Shown piece by piece: positions 3,777-25,548 of a stretch of DNA of 64,000 nucleotides. The stretch spans positions 1-64,000 of the IMG/VR virus record IMGVR_UViG_3300038443_002533; one strand, written 5' to 3'. The translations under genes were made by a program, and so were the position numbers. The notes below the pieces were generated by a model, which ran no database searches, was not told the origin of the DNA, and saw nothing but the letters and a program-made list of their open reading frames with translations. This DNA is from a virus (taxonomy: Duplodnaviria > Caudoviricetes). Positions within the stretch are counted from its first letter, which is position 1. Each line of letters begins with the position of its first letter.

Positions 3777-6700
3777 TTAGAACGGGGAACGCGGACGAGC
3801 GACCGAGACCGGGGGACGCGGCAACTCGCTGGCCTGACGTGGCATGGTGCGCGCTTCTTGTGAGGACGGGGTGGCGTTAGCGGGATTGGCTGGTGCCGGA
3901 CCCGCTTTCAATCCACTTAAGCCATCACGGATTTCCTTCAGAACCCCTACCGCATCAAGTTGCACCGAGTACGATTTTTCCAAGATGCTGTTGGTTTCTT
4001 GCAGGTTAGAAATACGCACGTCCATTTGTTGCTGCGCATTGGCCATCTGGTCTTGGCTGCGCGTTGGCGGTACGAAACCACCCGCCATCATGGGGTTAAT
4101 GGGTACCGTCGGGGTGGCCACCGGCTTGGCCGTTGTCGGAGTCGGGGTCGGGGTCGTCGCTGGGCTCGGAGTGTTCCCCGGCAAGCCTGGCATGCCCAAC
4201 CCAAACGCTGGCTTCGCGGTCGGTGTGGTCGGTGCAGTCGGTTTGGCGTCTTCTTTCTTGGCCGTGGCTGGCGGTGGTGCTGAAGCTACCAGACTTTCGC
4301 CACCATCCATGGATAAGTTCTGGGACTTACCTTGCAACCGGCTATTGACCAGTTGGTAGATTTGTCCCACCGTCAACGGTTCCCCGTTGCGGCTATAGAA
4401 GATCGAGCGGTTCTTGGCGGCTGCATCCGGCAGGATCATCGCCCCCAAGGCGTTGGGGTCAGCGGTCAAGAACTTCTTCGCCCCACCTGGCCCCAAGAAG
4501 TGTGAGAAGTAAATATCCGTGTCCGTCACCGGACGACCGAGCTTTCCATCGAGTGCATCCACACTTTGCTTGAGGTATTCCGCCCCCATCAAGGCATTGG
4601 CACGGGGATCAGTCGCGGGGGTACCAGGTGCGATACCGTACTTCTTGCCGAATTTCTTCAGCATCCACGACCACGTATCGGAGACGAATTGGTACAAGCC
4701 TGTGGCGGAGGTACCTTTAGCCTTAACCATGTAGTCAAAGCCAGACTCCACCGCAGCCATCGCCGCCATCAACTTCCCATCCACCCCCACCATCTTCGAC
4801 ACCGACAAAATCATGTCTTTGACTGCTGCCCATGATTTATTGCCCTGTGGTTTCGGAATAGCGTTGATGTCACCGCCCGTGCCTTGACCCGGATGTTCCA
4901 TCTCACGCCCACCACTCATCCCACTCGGGGCCGATCCCGAATACGGGTTCGATCCGACTTGGGGCGCAGTCGCAATCCGCGCATTGGCACCCACGGAACC
5001 CGAGACCGCCGCTTTGGTCGATTGCCAGAAGTCCTTGATCGTGCCCAGGAATCCGGTCGATTTCGGCGGTGTGGCCGGTTGACTGTTGGCGGCCGACTTA
5101 CCTGCGGTCGGTTGGTTACCGCCTTTGCCACCCGGCTCTGCCAGCACCATGGCTTTGGCCATATCCTTCAAGCCTTGCATGTTGCCGTCGGTGGAGCGCA
5201 CGTCGGTATTGAGTTCATACCCGGTCCAGGGGGAGGTGCTGACATTCCAGACACTGCCACCGTTGGTGTTGGTGGTGTACAGAGCAGTCGCCACGTCCAC
5301 CGCTTGGTTGGCCTTCAAGACGAGTTTGCCATCGACCGGATCATCCTTCCCGGTTTGGGCTTTCATCAAGCTGGCATAGTTCAAGAACACCGGTAGGAAC
5401 CGCTGGTTGAACCAACTGATCCAGTTTGCCACCAAGCCATCATTCGAGGCATCTACCCCGAAAGCCGGACCCGAGGTCAAGACTTGTTGCTCGACCGAAC
5501 CCGACCATGTAGCGACGTTCTTGGCGTATGTCAGTTTCGGTGTCAAGGCTTTTTCCAAGGCTTGCAGAGCGCGCACCTTATCCAACTCCATCTTCACCAA
5601 GCCATACGCTTTAAACCGCACCACATCGACGCCATCGAGTTTATTCGTACCGAGTGACTCCAACACCACGGACGAGCCCGAGGCCATGACCTGCGCCCCT
5701 TTAGCGGGTTGGACCGACGTTGCCATTCCGCCGAGAGACAAGGCTTTCGCACTCACACCGGCTGGACCGCCTGGTGTACCTGCCGATGCCGTTGCTGTTT
5801 TCGCTGCGCCAATGGCTGCTGCGGCAGTGACCCCGGCCGCTTGCGCGCCCGGTGCTTTCTTCTTCAGTTCGCGTTCAGCCAACTGAATGATTGCGGTCAC
5901 ATCCCCCGCACCCATCTTCAGGCTCGGCAGATCCTTAAATGGCGAGGTGCTGTCGTTGTAGGCGCCTTCCGGGAAACGCGTGGCATTCAGGTATTGCAAG
6001 GCTTGGGTTGGCTCCAGCCCATCCACGTCACTCAACCACTTGTCCGCTGCAATCCCTTTCAAGGCTGCTGCGTGGGTCAAGAACACGGGCTTAAAGCGTA
6101 CACCGAACCAGTGAATCCAATCTTCCATCGCCGACTGGTCGTCTTTATCGATATTGAAATCTTTAAAGAGGGTCATCGGGTCACAGCGTTTCGGATCGAG
6201 CTTGGCGTCACCCTTACCGTAGATCACCGCGTCTTTGAGTTTGTCTTCCAGACCAAACACCGCCGCCAGGTGATCCGTGTCTTGCGGATGGAAACCGTAC
6301 TGGACGTAACGGATACGCGAGAGCAAACCGAGCTTCTTACGGGTGAAGTACTTGTACCCGAAATACGCCCCTGCTGCCACCCCAGCGACTGCGGCCGCGC
6401 CTATCAACACCGGTGCACTGATGACGCCCGCGATCGCGGTACCCGCTGCACTCAGCGCCGTGCCAGCCATGGCAGCACCACTGGCGAGCATACCGCCAGC
6501 GCCCGTCAACAGGCCACCCAGCCCGAGTCCTTCCAGACCGAGCAGACTCGCCCCCACACTCGCCGCACCTTTGATACCACGCCAGCCTTTACCCAGCAGG
6601 AACTTGGCTTTACCTTTGAAACCTTTGGCGTCTTTCCAGCCCGGCCCTTTCGGACCTTTCGGGACTTTATTCCCGCCGCCAGTCACGATGGTGGTATCCC

Positions 6701-9700
6701 CACCCTCAGCATCCTCCTTCTTCCCGCGCAGACGATCCCAGAGCGACTTAGCGCCGTTCTTGATGCGGGTGCCGATCCCAGGTGCACCCGGAGCAGCTGC
6801 CGCACCCGCTGTCGCTTTCTCAGATTCAGCTTTCTGACGCATCTGGTCTTCATAACTCCCGTCACGAATCCCATCACCGTTGCTGTCCCAGTCGCTGTGC
6901 TCTTTCGGCTTGGGCAGACGATCACGCAGCAAATCCCGAATCTCTTTCAAGAACGAGTTTTGCTCCAGTTGGATCTGGGCCGAAGCGGCCAGCACTTCCG
7001 CCGAGGTACCTTTGGCGAACGGGTTCTTGCCCCGCAACAGATCGAATGCGCCACCGATACCGCGCACCCCGGTTTTCACCAAGGTCTTACCCAGCTTTGC
7101 GCCACCGGTGACCAACTTCGTCGCCGCGGTGGTAGCGGTACGACCGATCTTCAGGGCGGTACGGGTGGCGAGCTTTATCCCACCAAACGCCAGGTTCGCC
7201 AACTTAGCCCAACCGGTACGAATGGTTTTGCCGTTTTTGTCTACCAGACCTTTGCGGATATCGTCGTGGGTCAAGACCGTTTCCGGACCATCAGCCCCCA
7301 TGGTCAATACCACGCCATCGATCTGGGATGGCCGTTTGATGACGTTACCGGTAGTGGCAGAGTAATACGCCCCAGCGCGCATCATGCGTGCGGTCATGGC
7401 CGGTTCACCCGGACGACCTTGGACGAAGATGTCTTGGGCCAAATCCATCAAGCCCCACGCTTTCTTGGTCAACCACCATGCCGCACGGAAGACTGGCGGC
7501 AAACCACCCGTCAAGGCACCGAAGACTTTCTTACCGATACCGTAAGCGCTTTTGATGGTCACCCCCAGGGCCTTCAGGGATTTCTTCACCGGACCGATCT
7601 TCTGCCAAGCGTGCTCGACTTCATCGGCCGACAGCATGAGTTGCTCACCCGCTGCGGTACGACGCACCACATCGCCGGTGATATCTTTCAGACGACGGAT
7701 GGGTTGACCCGTGGCTTTATCGAAGTAGACATTCCCTTCTTGCAGCATGCGGCCGTACAACCGTGGACGCCGTTCGTTACCGACGTAGATATCCACGAAG
7801 CCCCGTGCTCGGCGGTATTGGCTGGCCACAGCGAAACTCGCTGCATCCCCTGCCAACCCAGCTGTGCCTTTGAAAATGTTCCAACCGAGTTTTACCCCGC
7901 CGCCGACCAGACCGTTGGCGACCCGTCCACCCAATCGGGCTGTGCCGGTGACGGCGTTGAAGCCACCTTTGACTAGATCGGTCAAGCGCAGGTTCAACCG
8001 GGACAGGCCACGGCGAGCGGCACCGCCTGCACGGCGCAGTGCGCCTTCGGGGGGCACACCACCAGTGGTGATGATACCGTCTTCCAGACGATCGCGGATG
8101 GCCAGCAGAATGTCTTTGATTTCAGTAAAGACATTCTTTTCCGGGCCACGGGTGGCGCTACGACGCAATGCTTCGGTTTGACCCTGGACATTACGCAGCA
8201 GTTGTTCACCCACGCCTTGCGCCCGTTGATGTGCCCCACGCAGACGTTCACCCAAGTCCGACAGGTGTTCATCACGGTGTTCCCACAGATCACGCAGACG
8301 GGTTTGCGCCGCAGCGATTTGTGGTTCGACCCGATTGCGCAGGCGCTGGGCTTCGACATTCACTCGACGCTGAGCGCGTCGCGCTTGCCGCTGGGCTTGT
8401 TCTGCCATGACTTGGGCTTGCTGACGTACGGCATCCAGACGTTGTTGATTCGCATCCAGGAAGCGACGGCTTTGTACCCGGGTTTGACGACTAGCGCGCC
8501 GCGCCATCCGACCCGTGGCACGCATCGCAGAACCAGCACCCTCAACCATCTGGTCAAACATCGATGGCGTACCGTTACCCTGACCCGTGTGCAGATCCGC
8601 TTGCATGGCAGTCAAGATGTCTTTGATGTCCGCCACCAACGGCTTGGTGTTTTGCAGCTCGATGATTTCAATCAAACGCTGGATTTCCGAGACCGTCGAT
8701 TGTTGAGTGGCGCCATGTGCCGCCAGTGCCGAGGGTTCGACCCCGCCTTGACGGATACGACGGCGACCTTGGCCCGGCAGACCCATGATCGCATTGGCGT
8801 TGTAATTCTCCCCTGCGAAATACGCATTGATCTTGGCCATGTCGATTTGCGTTGAACCCGGCTTGATCAAGCCCATGTCTTCCAGCAAATCACGCGGATA
8901 GACTTCGAGCAGTTGTTGAATCTCCGCCCGACGGTCATTCGCCGAACGTCCCACACCGCGGAAACGTGCCGCGAAGTCGAGGTTAGTCGCCCCTTCCGTG
9001 GTTTTGTCTTTCTTGGCCAGCTCTTTAAACAGAGCTGCGTATTTATCACCGTGCGCCGAGTTACCGAAGTTACCGGCATTCAGATAGTTAGAGATCCGGC
9101 CACTTTCATAGCCAGCCCGGCCCCGCAGGTTGTCATTCATCAGAATGTCAGCCAACTCTTTGCGCTGCGCTGGCGTCAACTCACCGCGCGGGTCGACCAT
9201 CTCCAGCACCCGATCGCGTTCATTCTTCACCCCGTTACGCGAGGCTTCATCGAACAAACGGTGGAAGGTGCTTTGCCGAACCGCTTTGGTGTTGGAGAAC
9301 GCCCCGCGGTGATAGTCATACTGGGTCAAATCGATCGCGTTGTTACCCGTGCGTTGGATTTGCAGTTCTTGGTAGATCCGGGCCAGATAGCCCGGGATCA
9401 CTTCCACCAAGGACTTATGCGCTTGGTTGTTGAAAGTGGTTGGGCTATACAAATCGCCGATTCCACTTTCTTTAACTTGGGTGTTGCTGGCGTTGGCACG
9501 ACGCACCGTGCCTTTGGCCAGATCCATCAGTGGGTCACCGATGGCACCAAACAGATTGCTCAAGAACCGACGCTTGTTGTCCGACAGCCGGTCACCAAAC
9601 CGATTGTCCAGGAACTCATCCACCGAGGATGTCGAGTCCGTGGCTCGGTTCGACCAATCCGTGGCGATCTGCGGGGCATTCTCGACACCGTATTGGAGAC

Positions 9701-19470: not shown

Positions 19471-20280
19471 ATGGGAAACATGAATTTGAATTCGGTCGTC
19501 TTTGCCTGTACCTCGCTGGTTGGGGTCAACAAGGTCGGCACCCTGAAACGCGACGAGAATGGTTACTACCCGATGGTGGTGGGCGCCCTGAACGTCTTTA
19601 ACTCGGGCGGCAGCTTTTACCCGCTCAAAGCCGAAGTGCAGGATCTGCTCACCAACAGTTCCGGCTCGTTCCAACGGCGCATCAACCGCGGCGCCCTGCG
19701 CGGTGAACTCGGTCACCCGAAGCCCCCGCCGCGCGCGACCAATCCCGCCGAGCAACGCATGCGGGATGAAGAGTTCGTACGTCGCAATCTGTCGATCTAC
19801 GAAGAGCGGATTTGCTGCCACCACATGAAGATCTGGCTCGACTTCGACTCCGTCAAGGACAAAGAAGGGCGCTCGGTCATCTCGATCATGTCGCTGGTCA
19901 AACCCAGTGGCGAACTCGGGCATGTGCTGCAACAACAACTGGACAATCCGCACGAAAACGTGTGCTTCTCGATCCGTTCGTTCACCGACAACAAAGTCCG
20001 CTTTGGAGTCGAAGAGCGTACACTGAAGGAAGTCATCACGTTTGACTGCGTGAATGAGCCGGGCATCGCGACCGCTGAGAAGTATTTCTCGCCGGCGCTG
20101 GAGAGCAACTACGAGATGGACATCTCGCGTAGTCTCCTCGAACGCGCGATCCTGGAACATCGTCCGAGTGGCATGTCGAATGAGTCGATGGTGATTTCTC
20201 CGGAAGCGTTGTTCAACGCCATCGGGTATCCGCTGCCGAATCAAGCTTCGCTGCGTCGTCCTTCCCTGCACTGGAAGTGA
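19471..20280 (+). CDS. Prohead (head maturation) serine protease (phiKZ gp175-like, 269 aa)
   Basis: T4 gp21-type motifs 'LRGELGHP', 'FSIRS' and 'ITFDCVNEPGI'; C-terminal A-L-E possible self-cleavage site (FSPALES). Confidence 0.85.
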   Translation: MGNMNLNSVVFACTSLVGVNKVGTLKRDENGYYPMVVGALNVFNSGGSFYPLKAEVQDLLTNSSGSFQRRINRGALRGELGHPKPPPRATNPAEQRMRDEEFVRRNLSIYEERICCHHMKIWLDFDSVKDKEGRSVISIMSLVKPSGELGHVLQQQLDNPHENVCFSIRSFTDNKVRFGVEERTLKEVITFDCVNEPGIATAEKYFSPALESNYEMDISRSLLERAILEHRPSGMSNESMVISPEALFNAIGYPLPNQASLRRPSLHWK

Positions 20281-21081: not shown

Positions 21082-21582
21082 ATGTCTGACGATAAACTGA
21101 AGCCGGCTGCCTCGCACGCGGAGCTGACCGATAAGATCGAACAACTCGCCAAGCTCGGCAAAAACGGCGTCGGTGAAGCCCTGGACAACATCTACGAGCA
21201 GACCCTGCCGATCGACCTGCCCATCGCCACCGTCGAGCGCCTGCGCGCCCACGACAAAGCCTTCATCGCTGCCAGCGCCGACGCCTTCGGCAACCTGTCC
21301 CGTGCCGCGGCCGTCGCCGATGCCAAAATGACCGAGACCTCGGCCCGCTTCCCGATGGTCGGCGGCTCGTACGTCGATTTCACCTGGGACCGCGAAGTCG
21401 AGCGCAACGCCGGCATCGCTGCCAAGGGCGAAGTCGCACCGAAGAAGACCGTCTACGGCGCCATGTCCGGCAAAGCAGTCATGGGCGGTTCCGACTCCGG
21501 CGCCGGCGAGCTGAACAAGGTGTTCAAGCGCCAGAAGCAAGCCGCCTACGACCTGTTCGCGCCGGCCGCTACCACGGCCTAA
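21082..21582 (+). CDS. Highly expressed hypothetical protein (166 aa)
   Basis: AAAAAGGA SD before ATG 21082 (ORF-track start 20917 is an over-extension); very strong C/G third-position bias like chmA/phuZ. Confidence 0.8.
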   Translation: MSDDKLKPAASHAELTDKIEQLAKLGKNGVGEALDNIYEQTLPIDLPIATVERLRAHDKAFIAASADAFGNLSRAAAVADAKMTETSARFPMVGGSYVDFTWDREVERNAGIAAKGEVAPKKTVYGAMSGKAVMGGSDSGAGELNKVFKRQKQAAYDLFAPAATTA

Positions 21583-21591
21583 GGACCAGCG

Positions 21592-21644
21592 CAACCGCAA
21601 TGCCGGCCGTAGCTTACCAGGCGCACCTACCGGCGTTGCGGTTG
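21592..21644 (+). other. 15-bp RNA hairpin
   Basis: CAACCGCAATGCCGG (21592-21606) pairs with CCGGCGTTGCGGTTG (21630-21644) with one U-G pair; 23-nt loop; followed by TTCTTCCT. Confidence 0.7.
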
Positions 21645-21870
21645 TTCTTCCTGAAAATCAATTGAGCGGTAATTGTGGATGACCGTGGTTGCTCATCCGC
21701 AGTAAGCTTGGTTGGGGGTAAAACGCTACCCTGTGAGTCGCTGTCGCGGCATGCGTGAGAATACCCGAAGCGGGAAAAGTGTGAGCCATGATTCCTCCCA
21801 GTCATTCCCCTAACTCGCTTCTGGTTGCAGTAACCTTCTGGCCCGTGGAGACATCGGCCAGTTGTAAGAA

Positions 21871-22025
21871 AGAGTGTTGCCAGAGTGGTTAAATGGTAAC
21901 GCGGTACAAGACAGCAAGGGTGGCTACCGTGAGCCGAAAATCTCGTTTGACAACAAACGAGCACCTGATCCTCTTCAAGAGGCCGAGGCCCTTCAATCTC
22001 GTGAGTTCGAATCTCACACACTCTT
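21871..22025 (+). ncRNA. tRNA-like RNA (155 nt) with a large multi-helix insert in place of the anticodon arm
   Basis: Perfect 7-bp acceptor AGAGTGT/ACACTCT; Ser/Leu-type D arm T8G9-CCA-GAGTGGTTAAA-TGG; perfect T arm GTGAG-TTCGAAT-CTCAC; ~104 nt between D and T arms; no encoded CCA. Confidence 0.75.
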
Positions 22026-22069
22026 TTGAAAATCCTAGCAAGTGATGCTGCTTCGTACCTCTTAAATGA

Positions 22070-22290
22070 AAAAGGTTGCTACCCATGGAGGGTACCAGCC
22101 CGGTAAGGAGTCACGTTCCAAGGTCCGGAGAAATCCGGTATATCACCGTGAGAAATCACGCGGTCTTGGATGAGCTAGGTGACAGATGAATCGGTTCCGA
22201 CTGATTCACTCTGGCTAAGGTGACAAGGTCCCCTGGACCCTGCGGACACCTTTTCGGATCCACCAGTTGCATGGCCAGAACCCACCGCTA
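22070..22290 (+). ncRNA. Highly structured non-coding RNA candidate
   Basis: TCCAAG/CTTGGA closes two GAAA-capped hairpins (CCGGA-GAAA-TCCGG; GTGA-GAAA-TCAC); also CAGA-TGAATC/GATTCA-TCTG, AAGGTG/CACCTT enclosing GGTCC/GGACC, and TACCC/GGGTA; no credible ORF. Confidence 0.6.
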
Positions 22291-22296
22291 GTAGAA

Positions 22297-22340
22297 ACCA
22301 CCTCAGCCTCCGGGCTGGGGTGGTCTTCTATGACCTTTTC
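22297..22340 (+). terminator. Strong Rho-independent terminator closing the ncRNA locus
   Basis: ACCACCTCAGCC-TCCG-GGCTGGGGTGGT followed by CTTCTATGACCTTTTCTTTTTTTTT. Confidence 0.85.
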
Positions 22341-22456
22341 TTTTTTTTTGTTTATAGGCGTTTTGAGGCTGTCGTTATGTGTGGATGACAGAAGTTACTC
22401 ACGTCAATAGAAAACCCCGTATAACGCGTTCTAGTCTTTCCTAACGGCATAATACG

Positions 22457-22483
22457 CCTCCTTCCCCATGACGGGGAAGGAGG
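22457..22483 (-). terminator. Hairpin downstream of the tail tube gene
   Basis: CCTCCTTCCCC/GGGGAAGGAGG with outer ATACG/CGTAT; flanked by CGGCATA (TATGCCG on the minus strand). Confidence 0.7.
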
Positions 22484-22501
22484 GACGTATGTCGTGTTGA
22501 A

Positions 22502-23395
22502 TTACACGTTGACTTGACGCTGTGCCACGGCATCCACGCTGGCACCGTAACCAACCAGGTTCGCAGCTTTGACGTCGGCCGAGATCTGGTCGATCATGGC
22601 TTGACGCATCATCGGGTTGGCCCCGACGTAGTTGACCGTGTTCAGGATCTGCTGGGCAAAAGCATCCACGCCAGCGCCGACTTGTTGCAGTGCGGTGAAC
22701 TGGACGTCGACGTTCAGCGTTTGCATGTCCTGGGTCTTGTCAGCCGAACCGACGATGTCGCCGGTGCCTTCCGGCATCATGTTGAAGCACAGGAAGGCTT
22801 GTTCGACTTTGCGGCCGTACGGATCCGGTTCGATGTAGAGCACCGTCGCGGTGGTCATGTCGCCCAGGTTGTCCGTCACTTCACCCGACGCATATGCGGC
22901 TTGGAAGGCGGCCAGGGTGGAGACCATCGGGAACTTGGTGTCCGGGTCCATGCCCGCGTACAGCAGCCACGCTTCCAGGAAACGCTGGATCGGACGACCG
23001 AAGCGTTCCAGGTAGGTATGCTTCGGCTTGGACTCGGCGCGCTTCATGTTCACCAGGTCTTGCTGGGTTTGACCCGAGCCACCGTACGGGTTCTGAGCGA
23101 ACTCAGCGGTCAGGCCGCGGTTCAGGCCTTCGACGTTGAGCCACTGGGTTTCGATCAGGGCGCGCAGGCACGCCACGAACTTGTCACCATTCGGGAAGTA
23201 CTTGAACAGCTTCGGGGCTTCGATCAGGATCGGGATGAGGTGACGACGGACGTACGCTTGGTTGTTGACCCAAGCCGCATTGTCCGGTGCCCAACCCATC
23301 TGGCCGCCATAGGTCAGATCGACCATGGGTGCCTGTGCTCCCAGCCCGTACGCTGTGCCAGCCTGAAGAATGGCACCATTAGGACGAGTAGTCAT
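22502..23395 (-). CDS. Tail tube protein (phiKZ gp30-like, 297 aa)
   Basis: Directly follows the sheath gene; strong codon bias; size and order typical of the phiKZ sheath-tube pair. Confidence 0.75.
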   Translation of the reverse strand: MTTRPNGAILQAGTAYGLGAQAPMVDLTYGGQMGWAPDNAAWVNNQAYVRRHLIPILIEAPKLFKYFPNGDKFVACLRALIETQWLNVEGLNRGLTAEFAQNPYGGSGQTQQDLVNMKRAESKPKHTYLERFGRPIQRFLEAWLLYAGMDPDTKFPMVSTLAAFQAAYASGEVTDNLGDMTTATVLYIEPDPYGRKVEQAFLCFNMMPEGTGDIVGSADKTQDMQTLNVDVQFTALQQVGAGVDAFAQQILNTVNYVGANPMMRQAMIDQISADVKAANLVGYGASVDAVAQRQVNV

Positions 23396-23460: not shown

Positions 23461-25548
23461 TTAGGCAGCGTTGGCCAGGTCTTCGGCGCGGTACGATTCG
23501 ATGGTCAGCGACTGGACCGAACGCATCGGCGAAGCACCCAGCTTGACCTTGGTGGTCCAGCTGTAGCCACGCAGATCGTCATCCGCCGTGAACTCCGTCG
23601 ACACGATGATCGTGAAGCGGTTGTCGAACTTGTCCTTCACCGCCGCCATGTAGGCCGCGTTGATACGCTCGACCAGCTGCTCTTTGGTCAGGTCGCTGCG
23701 ACCGGTGAAGTCGCGGTGCACCTTCTCGCCGAGCGACACCAGTTGGGCGCACGCGAACGCCGTGATCGCCGAGTTGAGCACCGAAGTGTCGTCTGCGTAC
23801 ACGGTTTGGAATTGCGGGAAGTACATCATGTCCATCGTGTACGGCTCCGGCCATACCAGACCTGCATCCCAGTCCTTGTAGCGTGCGTTGGCCGGGCGGA
23901 ACACCACGTTCAGATCGCGCAGCTGCGTGACTTGGTTGTTCGGGCTGACGTCGGGCTTGTACTTCGAGACCCACTTGCCGTTCGAGGCACCCATGTAGAG
24001 CGACCAGGCGTATGCGCGGTCGATCGACGCCGGGATCGTGCCCGCGTAGTTGCTGTTGAGCAGGTAACCCGAACCCCCGATGATCGCTGCACGCACCGTC
24101 GGGGTAGCGTACATCGACGATTCCGGGAAGTTCTGGAGCGTCGACAGCAGCGTGATCGCGACCGAACGTTCTTGGTCGTCGGTCAGGTCCGGCCCGCCGA
24201 CTTGGTGGGTGGCCGCCATGACGAAGGTGTTCTTGCGCACGGCGATGAAGTTGGCCATGGTCTTCTTCACGTCGAGCGGGAAGCCCGAGTCCCAGAAAAT
24301 GTTTTCCGGGTTGTTGACCGAGTCCTGACGCTGGCTGTTCTTGTCGCCGTACTCCAGCAGCTTGGCTTTCACCAGGGCCGCGAAGGTGTCGTTGTTCATC
24401 GTGCCGTCGCTGCCGCCTTGGGCGAACATCGTGGTCGACTGGGCCAGACGCACCGAGTTGGCTGCACCGGTGACCAGTTGGAACGTGTGGTACGGTGCAC
24501 CGTAGGACGACACAGCGGTGAACGGGTTGATACGATAGATTTCATCGTCTTCACCCATGATGTCCGAGAACTGGTCCATCGCCGGCAGTTCTGCCGTGTA
24601 GATCTTCGACAGGACGGTGGCGATGTTGGCATCGTACACCTTGATCTGGTCGAAGTCACCGATGGTCGGCGACAGGCCCGGGGTCGAGACGTCTTGCCAG
24701 TTACGGACGAAGATGTCACCGATGTACAGCTGGGCCGAGGTGTTGCGATCACGCAGGCCGGGCTTCAGCGAGAACGGGATAGCTTGGGCGCCGGTCAGGG
24801 TCGAGACGGCCGTGGCAGTGGTCAGGGCGTCGGGACGCGACATCACGGCCAGTTGGAACGGGTAGGCTTTCTGATCGGTGATCAGGCGGGTGTCGACTTG
24901 GACATTGGTCAGCTGGGTCAGGGCCCACAGCGAGATGCCCTTGTTGTTGCCCCATTCGCCTTCCGAGCTGACCATGAAGTCGAAGAACGGATAGCGGCTC
25001 GACTGGGTCGCATTGCCGCTGTCGACCTGGTCACCCACGGTGACTTGAGCGGCGCCGAAGTCGCGCACGCCGTCAATCGTCGGGATGGCTTCGACCACCC
25101 ACTTGCCCAGGTAACCGGCGACCTTGCTGTTGGTCGGGACCTTGTTACCGCTGCCGTCGATCTGGTACGTACCGTCAGCGTTACGCTGATAGTCTTGCAC
25201 TTGGGTGGCGAGCAGGTCGAGCGACAGGCGGAACGCCGCCGGCGGGTTCGCATCAGCGGGCAGCACGCGTTCCACCATCGAGGCATTGCCTGCCTTGTTG
25301 AACACGTTGTTGAACGCCGTCGCGTGGTTGAAGTACTTGTCCAGTTCGTCAAAAGTTTCTTGACCGAAAATCGTAGCGCGGCTGTCACCGACTACGAGGT
25401 AACTTTTACCTGGCTTCCCTTTGCGAGCAAAGAGAAACGATTTCGGCAGGTGGGATGGCTGATCGAGCGGTTGAGGATTCAGCATCCGACCAGACACATC
25501 GTGAATGCCGTTGTTATACGACATCGGTGTTGCGTTCGGAATGTTCAT
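23461..25548 (-). CDS. Contractile tail sheath protein (phiKZ gp29-like, 695 aa)
   Basis: Sheath-like motifs 'GGSDG', 'FWDSGFPLDVKK', 'KVHRDFTG'; strong codon bias; followed by the tube gene. Confidence 0.85.
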   Translation of the reverse strand: MNIPNATPMSYNNGIHDVSGRMLNPQPLDQPSHLPKSFLFARKGKPGKSYLVVGDSRATIFGQETFDELDKYFNHATAFNNVFNKAGNASMVERVLPADANPPAAFRLSLDLLATQVQDYQRNADGTYQIDGSGNKVPTNSKVAGYLGKWVVEAIPTIDGVRDFGAAQVTVGDQVDSGNATQSSRYPFFDFMVSSEGEWGNNKGISLWALTQLTNVQVDTRLITDQKAYPFQLAVMSRPDALTTATAVSTLTGAQAIPFSLKPGLRDRNTSAQLYIGDIFVRNWQDVSTPGLSPTIGDFDQIKVYDANIATVLSKIYTAELPAMDQFSDIMGEDDEIYRINPFTAVSSYGAPYHTFQLVTGAANSVRLAQSTTMFAQGGSDGTMNNDTFAALVKAKLLEYGDKNSQRQDSVNNPENIFWDSGFPLDVKKTMANFIAVRKNTFVMAATHQVGGPDLTDDQERSVAITLLSTLQNFPESSMYATPTVRAAIIGGSGYLLNSNYAGTIPASIDRAYAWSLYMGASNGKWVSKYKPDVSPNNQVTQLRDLNVVFRPANARYKDWDAGLVWPEPYTMDMMYFPQFQTVYADDTSVLNSAITAFACAQLVSLGEKVHRDFTGRSDLTKEQLVERINAAYMAAVKDKFDNRFTIIVSTEFTADDDLRGYSWTTKVKLGASPMRSVQSLTIESYRAEDLANAA

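Follow-up and report, generated by a model that had tools for sequence, protein, structure and literature searches.

An anticodon-less tRNA-Ser-type module carried as an optional cassette in a noncoding locus of a phiKZ-like jumbo phage

What is a gene that keeps the acceptor stem and the elbow of a tRNA and carries another RNA structure where its anticodon arm should be? This question is raised by a 155-nt element at positions 21871-22025 of the IMG/VR virus record IMGVR_UViG_3300038443_002533. The window analysed, 64,000 nucleotides long, is the first 64 kb of this complete 272,470-bp record with direct terminal repeats (genome G000), which comes from a phiKZ-like jumbo phage. The element is located in an ORF-poor gap of about 900 nt, bordered by a plus-strand gene ending at 21582 and by the end of the tail tube gene. 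It is a tRNA-Ser-derived module unable to decode, which is optional, belongs to a larger noncoding locus and is one of a family. The parts of the element and the surrounding features are listed in Table 1.

The frame shows the features by which a tRNA is recognised: a 7-bp acceptor stem stacked straight on a 5-bp T stem, a T loop of the TTCRANY type, U8, and a D arm bearing A14, G18G19 and A21. T8 and G9 are directly 3' of the first acceptor strand, each of the 15 pairs in the frame is perfect, and the conserved tertiary bases remain in place. The original prediction, made from the sequence alone, had listed the acceptor, D arm and T arm, a gap of about 104 nt and the lack of an encoded CCA, and each of these is found where it was placed: the distance between D arm and T arm is 104 nt (21897-22000) and TTTG comes after position 22025. 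The same prediction had stated that there is no canonical anticodon arm. Within 21897-22000 no 5-bp anticodon stem with a 7-nt loop (U33, purine 37) is found, and none assembles even after removing any single block. Both strands of the 272-kb genome were scanned with a strict pattern, in which a perfect 5-bp T stem enclosing a T-loop-like heptamer must be followed at once by a perfect 7-bp acceptor. Besides the element itself, the pattern matched only in the tRNA cluster (162.2-164.0 kb) and at five places in coding DNA that lack tRNA features; the frame is therefore not a chance match.

Standard detectors miss the element, as had been anticipated. ARAGORN in default mode reports 0 tRNA or tmRNA genes in the window, and Rfam shows no match in the window at gathering score and noise only, with no tRNA match, at E <= 10 over 21400-22700. 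When the insert is replaced in silico by the anticodon and variable arms of the tRNA-Ser of the relative G005, default ARAGORN calls a normal tRNA-Ser, so the chassis is of tRNA grade and the middle alone is foreign. Among other phage tRNA genes that share this T arm and whose acceptor ends in ...CTCT, almost every one is a class II tRNA-Ser gene; several have U73 and one has an identical TGCCAGAG D-arm start. By its sequence the frame is classed as tRNA-Ser-type. Ordinary phage class II tRNA-Ser (RF00005) shares with it the 7-bp acceptor, the 3-bp D stem with G18G19, an identical T arm, and the ...CTCT end, followed by U73 in several of these genes, but the element has 104 nt of unrelated structured RNA in place of the anticodon arm and the canonical variable arm. 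It also carries G2:C71 and C11:G24, which we take to be part of the E. coli serine identity set; its discriminator is U73, whereas that of tRNA-Ser is G73. The Ser, Leu and Ala synthetases ignore the anticodon, and the main Ser determinant is the long variable arm (PMC9976931). IMG/VR was scanned with three patterns, one combining D arm and T loop, one for the cargo hairpin and one combining T arm and acceptor; the matches were ordinary phage tRNA-Ser genes and chance similarities, and no further copy of the element was found there or elsewhere in the genome.

The insert is composed of a 78-nt cargo and two linkers. The four-way junction of the original prediction, with AAGGG and CCCTT closing three hairpins, is the predicted minimum-energy fold of the insert when the tRNA frame is imposed, and the unconstrained centroid agrees; predicted pair probabilities in the junction are 0.81-1.0, and a competing helix, CGCGGTA/TACCGTG, is 2.5 kcal/mol worse. 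The cargo alone shows a z of -2.3 (4 of 200 shuffles fold equally well) and the whole element a z of -2.0. The structure had been described as a nested cloverleaf. Only the outline of the inner junction resembles a cloverleaf: it is four-way in the predicted fold, but T-loop and D-loop motifs are absent. A hammerhead in the cargo was rejected, the CUGAU and GAAA words being, by eye, wrongly ordered around the four helices, and no ribozyme family scored. A search for antisense targets of the element in the genome gave nothing beyond chance (best 13 nt, E 0.48), and the four ORFs overlapping the element (135, 65, 51 and 50 aa) show no Pfam or PHROG family match.

On both sides of the element are conserved domains, A upstream and B downstream. 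Run X9 contains a more diverged allele without ~21826-22028, which comprises the 45-nt leader, the element and TTT. In the DNA of the relatives G001, G003 and G005, block A (...CCTCCCAGTCAT) leads almost at once into block B (GAAACAyTCC...), and a tRNA-like element is absent. Relative G002 shows, at the same site, a 134-nt Leu-type frame; its acceptor differs, it has A73 and a AATTGGTA D loop, and its insert is unrelated. Judged by these alleles, the element is a gain-or-loss cassette between two conserved domains of an ORF-free locus. Because two tRNA identities, Ser-type and Leu-type, occupy one site, tRNA shape rather than a single amino-acid identity seems to be what the site needs. Domains A and B match no Rfam family, GOLLD (RF01998) and ROOL (RF03087) included, and together may be a new large phage RNA. 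The hairpin at 21591-21645, right after the stop codon of the upstream gene, shows a conserved TACCAGGCACACC-like loop and a stem that covaries among six related phages; it may be a protein-binding site or a promoter or processing site. Positions 21705-21810 and 22029-22290, on either side of the cassette, are conserved structured noncoding sequence present in contigs of several metatranscriptome runs, one of which, from a root library, has a depth of 188.

The locus is also found in RNA libraries. Presence in a metatranscriptome was defined as at least half of the sampled words of 21860-22035, and by this definition eight runs, from six rhizosphere studies, contain the element. Contigs of two studies bridge both element ends with the insert present (21773-22287 and 21841-22286), and in a third study contigs stop at 21872 and restart at 21881. 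Contigs of three studies end at 22285-22287, about 12 nt short of the conserved hairpin with its T tract, which hints weakly at an RNA 3' end. As for a spliced form, four RNA runs yielded unspliced contigs only, and rare forms are lost in contigs. A higher abundance, suggested by X2, X3 and X5 contigs that end short of the flanking genes, was not used, as uncovered parts prove nothing.

The closely related strain of the contigs differs from this genome by 14 substitutions in 517 nt, none of which is within the 155-nt element, and the nearest, 21869 (A>G, -2) and 22027 (T>C, +2), are two bases beyond each end. Under an even spread the chance of 0/14 inside is (362/517)^14, about 0.007; by this one independent strain comparison the element is under constraint. 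A decaying pseudo-tRNA had been named as an outcome that would undo the original prediction, and the element does not have the look of one, all 14 substitutions of the related strain being outside it. Bases -1 to -3 can pair with 22025-22027 (73 to +2), which brings the acceptor helix to 10 bp, and both of the nearest substitutions in the other strain preserve this pairing.

Further frames of this kind are located in the tRNA cluster. With introns allowed, ARAGORN reports four frames of 138-165 nt with 62-89-nt inserts at 162274-163138 (L007:375-1239), which adjoin the only two canonical tRNAs of the genome. Each of the siblings 162533-162689 and 162974-163138 has a further T arm and a further D arm within its frame, together with a capped helix that resembles an acceptor, and so forms a tRNA inside a tRNA; in 162974-163138 the Rfam tRNA model reads two tRNAs with mismatched acceptors, and the nested pairing is perfect. 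All three class I siblings show G3:U70: two end in an encoded ACCA, and the third has A73 and then TCA. Three of the frames are without an encoded CCA. Frame 162827-162964 and its G005 orthologue (L009:1515-1644) share 34 of 34 pairs, with seven compensatory double changes and no disruptive one. A mini-tmRNA reading of this frame holds only in part and is not supported: G005 shares the ending ...T-P-A-stop, whose TAA is located in a hairpin loop, but codons before it vary freely. G005 also has the 162533 frame, there with a wholly different 51-nt insert and no conserved anticodon loop. In these comparisons the clade-wide pattern is one of conserved chassis and variable cargo. All insert frames of the clade are of Ala, Ser or Leu type, which is suggestive of anticodon-independent charging; the element, however, has U73 and not G73.

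Other aberrant frames were observed in the same genomes. G000 shows at 162441-162514 (L007:542-615) a 74-nt sequence with a perfect acceptor, GGGGAAG/CTTCCCC, a TGCGAAT T loop and an encoded CCA, in which the D and anticodon region is aberrant and ARAGORN gives no call. G003 contains a 131-nt class II frame (L004:6043-6174, minus strand) which has a large insert and yet reaches 36.4 bits with the Rfam tRNA model. G001 contains a 114-nt class II frame (L008:1854-1967, minus strand) with a 9-bp hairpin and 6-nt loop replacing the anticodon arm, and an oversized variable arm. Canonical tRNAs number seven in G005, two in G000 and one in G001. The phage genome contains no EndA (PF01974), RtcB (PF01139), Rnl-type ligase (PF09414) or TROVE/Ro60 domain.

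Table 1. Parts of the tRNA-like element, its flanking noncoding domains, and genes of the locus and of the tRNA cluster in G000
Feature	Position	Strand	Basis
Acceptor stem 5' strand, AGAGTGT	21871-21877	+	7/7 Watson-Crick pairs with 22018-22024; strict frame scan
Class II (Ser-type) D arm; 3-bp stem CCA 21880-82 / TGG 21894-96; loop with A14, G18G19, A21	21880-21896	+	similar D arms in phage tRNA-Ser genes; chimera test
Linker, 19 nt, mostly unpaired, replacing 5' half of anticodon arm	21897-21915	+	
Cargo, 78 nt, predicted four-way junction closed by AAGGG 21916-20 / CCCTT 21989-93	21916-21993	+	minimum-energy fold
Cargo hairpin 1, GGCT/AGCC	21921-21936	+	
Cargo hairpin 2, CTCGTTTG-ACAA-CAAACGAG, 8 bp, ACAA loop	21942-21961	+	
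Cargo hairpin 3, CCTCT-TCA-AGAGG	21964-21988	+	
Linker, 7 nt, preceding T arm	21994-22000	+	
T arm, GTGAG 22001-05 / TTCGAAT / CTCAC 22013-17	22001-22017	+	exact match to canonical tRNA-Ser(GCU) of relative G005
Acceptor 3' strand ACACTCT (22018-24) and discriminator T (22025)	22018-22025	+	
Leader, 45 nt, with hairpin CTGGCC...GGCCAG, gained or lost together with the element	21826-21870	+	X9 allele; alignment A2
Conserved noncoding domain A, hairpin at 21591-21645, block ending ...CCTCCCAGTCAT	21590-21825	+	alignment; RNA-library contigs
Structured noncoding domain B, GNRA-capped helices	22029-22290	+	alignment; contigs of three studies run through
Terminator-like: 11-bp G+C-rich hairpin 22298-22323, then T-rich tract 22336-22349	22298-22349	+	conserved in relatives
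Head maturation protease gene	19471-20280	+	
Tail tube gene	22502-23395	-	PF23806
Tail sheath gene	23461-25548	-	PF20961, phrog_3242
SNase-like nuclease, beside tRNA cluster	161875-162225	-	
RLIG1-family RNA ligase candidate, 208 aa, near tRNA cluster	166767-167393	+	PF17720, 29.5 bits, cut-off 25
Full CCA addition/repair enzyme with HD domain	186067-187329	+	NF008137, 482 bits

The ORF-free RNA locus, of about 700 nt, is located downstream of the head-gene operon. The closest cultured phages show a tail tube protein identity of at most 46%, and in Klebsiella phage Eowyn a comparable locus was not found. A blastn search with 21500-22600 against 50,697 phage records gave zero matches, and a metagenome scan with a tail tube profile gave three loci only: two already known, and a distant third without a noncoding locus.

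Several known systems resemble the element in part. In the GOLLD phage RNA, tRNAs are covalently contained in the linker between two conserved domains (PMC12286853), and in both cases a large noncoding RNA of a phage thus has an optional tRNA-shaped module placed between its two conserved domains; however, domains A and B do not match GOLLD, ROOL or any Rfam family, and the module here is without an anticodon arm. The GOLLD linker tRNAs are assumed to be ordinary in this comparison, their structure not being described in PMC12286853. YrlA (RF02553) is likewise a non-decoding RNA that retains a T arm, a D arm and an acceptor-like stem, and YrlA of M. smegmatis is cut by RNase P and receives CCA (PMC4201824). 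In YrlA, however, the acceptor-like stem is capped and the ends form the Ro60-binding stem, whereas the acceptor of the element is open and the opposite end is replaced; the YrlA model shows no match on the element, and the phage genome has no TROVE/Ro60 gene. A YrlA match on a sibling (31 bits, gathering score 69) was set aside as resemblance only; dimeric tRNAs cause YrlA false positives (PMC4201824). In tmRNA, too, the acceptor and T arm are retained and other RNA structure replaces the anticodon arm, but the element has A3-U70 and not G3:U70, shows no identified tag frame, is 155 nt long versus about 360, and is negative in the ARAGORN tmRNA search. A group I intron was rejected as well: the insert has 104 nt, versus a core of about 200 nt or more with P3-P8, and gives no Rfam match at E <= 10. 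The original prediction had held the element to be too short for a tmRNA or for a tRNA containing a group I intron, and these results agree with it.

Phage tRNA genes with inserts are known from Lak megaphages, where 'enigmatic' introns of tens of bases occur without a known splicing route, and one insert may itself encode a tRNA (PMC6784885). The tRNA-in-insert case resembles the nested siblings of this genome; in the Lak genes, however, tRNAscan with eukaryotic settings gave a type and an anticodon after intron removal, whereas the element keeps no anticodon arm. A frame of another phage group is found in Bacillus phage SPP1 (NC_004166, L072), located at 6647-6756 between genes 10 and 11 in the head operon. 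It is 110 nt long and of Leu type, not Ser type, with a shorter cargo: about 50 nt replaces the anticodon arm, and the Rfam tRNA model spans it end to end at 21.6 bits, below gathering score. After this frame, SPP1 shows an acceptor/T-arm minihelix at 6773-6804, and the annotation of gene 10 in the gap is flagged as conflicting. No published description of the SPP1 element or of anticodon-less chassis RNAs was found, the nearest cases in print being the Lak tRNA introns (PMC6784885) and the YrlA tRNA mimics (PMC4201824). A comparable design is man-made: in the engineered tRNA scaffold reportedly introduced by Ponchon and Dardel in 2007, a cargo RNA replaces the anticodon arm, the enzymes of the cell trim the ends and the fold protects the cargo. 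The phage element would be a natural counterpart of this design.

What the module does may lie in its top half. The most likely reading, to which we give close to an even chance, is that this half is a processing and stability handle for tRNA-processing enzymes by which a variable cargo is displayed, or a docking site on the long RNA. The intact top half is what RNase P, 3'-end trimming enzymes and the phage CCA-adding enzyme would recognise; cuts would fall at 21870/21871 and after 22025, domain A would be parted from domain B, and a compact, nuclease-resistant RNA of about 155 nt would be released with its cargo displayed. Alternatively, the top half would dock proteins as a tRNA-like handle while still joined to the long RNA. 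A broader proposal, which we regard as possible though doubtful, is that 21590-22350 would encode, in phiKZ-like jumbo phages of the rhizosphere, a new class of RNA, large, abundant and GOLLD/ROOL-like in its two domains, whose linker would take interchangeable anticodon-less chassis (Ser-type here, Leu-type in a relative, none in others) from a widespread, undescribed natural tRNA-scaffold family, present also in the tRNA cluster and in SPP1, that would carry variable cargos through host tRNA maturation.

Several points weigh against the processing handle and its release. The constraint test is a single independent strain comparison. The RNA data are assembled contigs, which are blind to 5' and 3' ends and to strand, and DNA carry-over into the libraries is possible; moreover, there is an uncut form, as seen from contigs spanning both boundaries. 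In bacteria, RNase P is usually hindered when leader and trailer pair, and the 3-bp extension of the acceptor could mean inefficient cutting. The predicted insert fold is without covariation support, the only other copies seen being identical to the element, and relatives manage without the cassette, which is dispensable.

The original prediction had taken the element for a tRNA mimic that does not decode. This stands in that the acceptor, elbow and T arm are kept and decoding is precluded (no anticodon arm; insert unspliced in contigs), but the roles proposed with it do not fare as well: a decoy for anticodon nucleases is unlikely, there being no anticodon loop to cut, and modulation of the stringent response is a poor fit, since it is triggered by A-site codon pairing and the loop is lacking. 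EF-Tu or ribosome binding requires aminoacylation. A mimic that could be charged is a rather improbable variant, in which CCA would be added, SerRS would charge the RNA, and the product would titrate host factors or absorb toxins that hit tRNA acceptor ends or elbows. It is in keeping with this that the clade frames are all of identity types with anticodon-ignoring synthetases (Ser/Leu class II; G3:U70 and ACCA for Ala), that the phage has a CCA enzyme, and that tRNA-targeting defences and RNA-repair countermeasures of jumbo phages are well established (PMC7824862). The discriminator, however, is U73 and not G73, the long variable arm is absent from its canonical position, and the Leu-type frame at the same site in G002 speaks against an identity-specific role. 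Splicing to a decoding tRNA-Ser is highly improbable. ARAGORN with introns, at thresholds lowered to 80%, does propose a tRNA with a 60-nt intron, and the introns of Lak megaphage tRNAs are themselves unexplained (PMC6784885); but the anticodon stem of the ARAGORN model is mismatched, no one-block removal gives a 5-bp stem with a 7-nt loop, the complete phage genome is without an EndA or RtcB gene, a group I intron would need more room than the insert offers, and the insert lacks an Rfam match and is present in RNA-library contigs.

Two further explanations are both unlikely. By one of them the element is a selfish or neutral insert, excised by RNase P and a 3' trimming enzyme, after which the phage RNA ligase would rejoin 3'-OH and 5'-phosphate and the tRNA-shaped piece would be a by-product. 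Such a history would fit the site, which is occupied in some close relatives and empty in others and has a frame of another tRNA type in G002; it would also fit the RLIG1-family ligase candidate near the tRNA cluster and siblings that are tRNA frames split by tRNA-like inserts. Cutting at the tRNA ends would nevertheless leave the 45-nt leader and two T's and would not restore the sequence of the cassette-free alleles; the joined form 21870^22026 was not seen in four RNA runs (in which contigs drop rare forms); no extra copies are found in IMG/VR or elsewhere in the genome; and selfishness leaves the conserved 104-nt cargo unexplained. By the other, the element is a functionless relic of a duplicated tRNA-Ser gene, its middle destroyed by an insertion, which is transcribed only through the expressed locus. 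Relatives do dispense with the cassette, the insert has neither covariation evidence nor an Rfam match, and the tRNA sets shrink in the clade, as the canonical counts given above show for G005, G000 and G001. A relic is at odds, however, with 0 substitutions in the element versus 14 in the flanks, with 15 of 15 perfect frame pairs and retained tertiary bases, with siblings that evolve by compensatory changes, and with a cargo that folds better than its shuffles.

Known tRNA mimicry comprises tmRNA, Y RNAs and the 3' ends of plant viruses, and in the literature no description was found of natural RNAs that use the top half of a tRNA as a chassis for unrelated, swappable cargo. Here a conserved chassis goes with a cargo, and even a tRNA identity, that varies, and the module is placed in the linker of a large phage noncoding RNA. 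Because standard tRNA finders and Rfam miss such genes, the RNA gene content of phages is under-annotated. If RNase P, 3' trimming and CCA addition are indeed recruited by the chassis, the 'tRNA scaffold' principle of RNA engineering would have been reached by phages as well, and the locus would open to experiment the question of why tRNAs so often accompany large phage RNAs such as GOLLD and ROOL.
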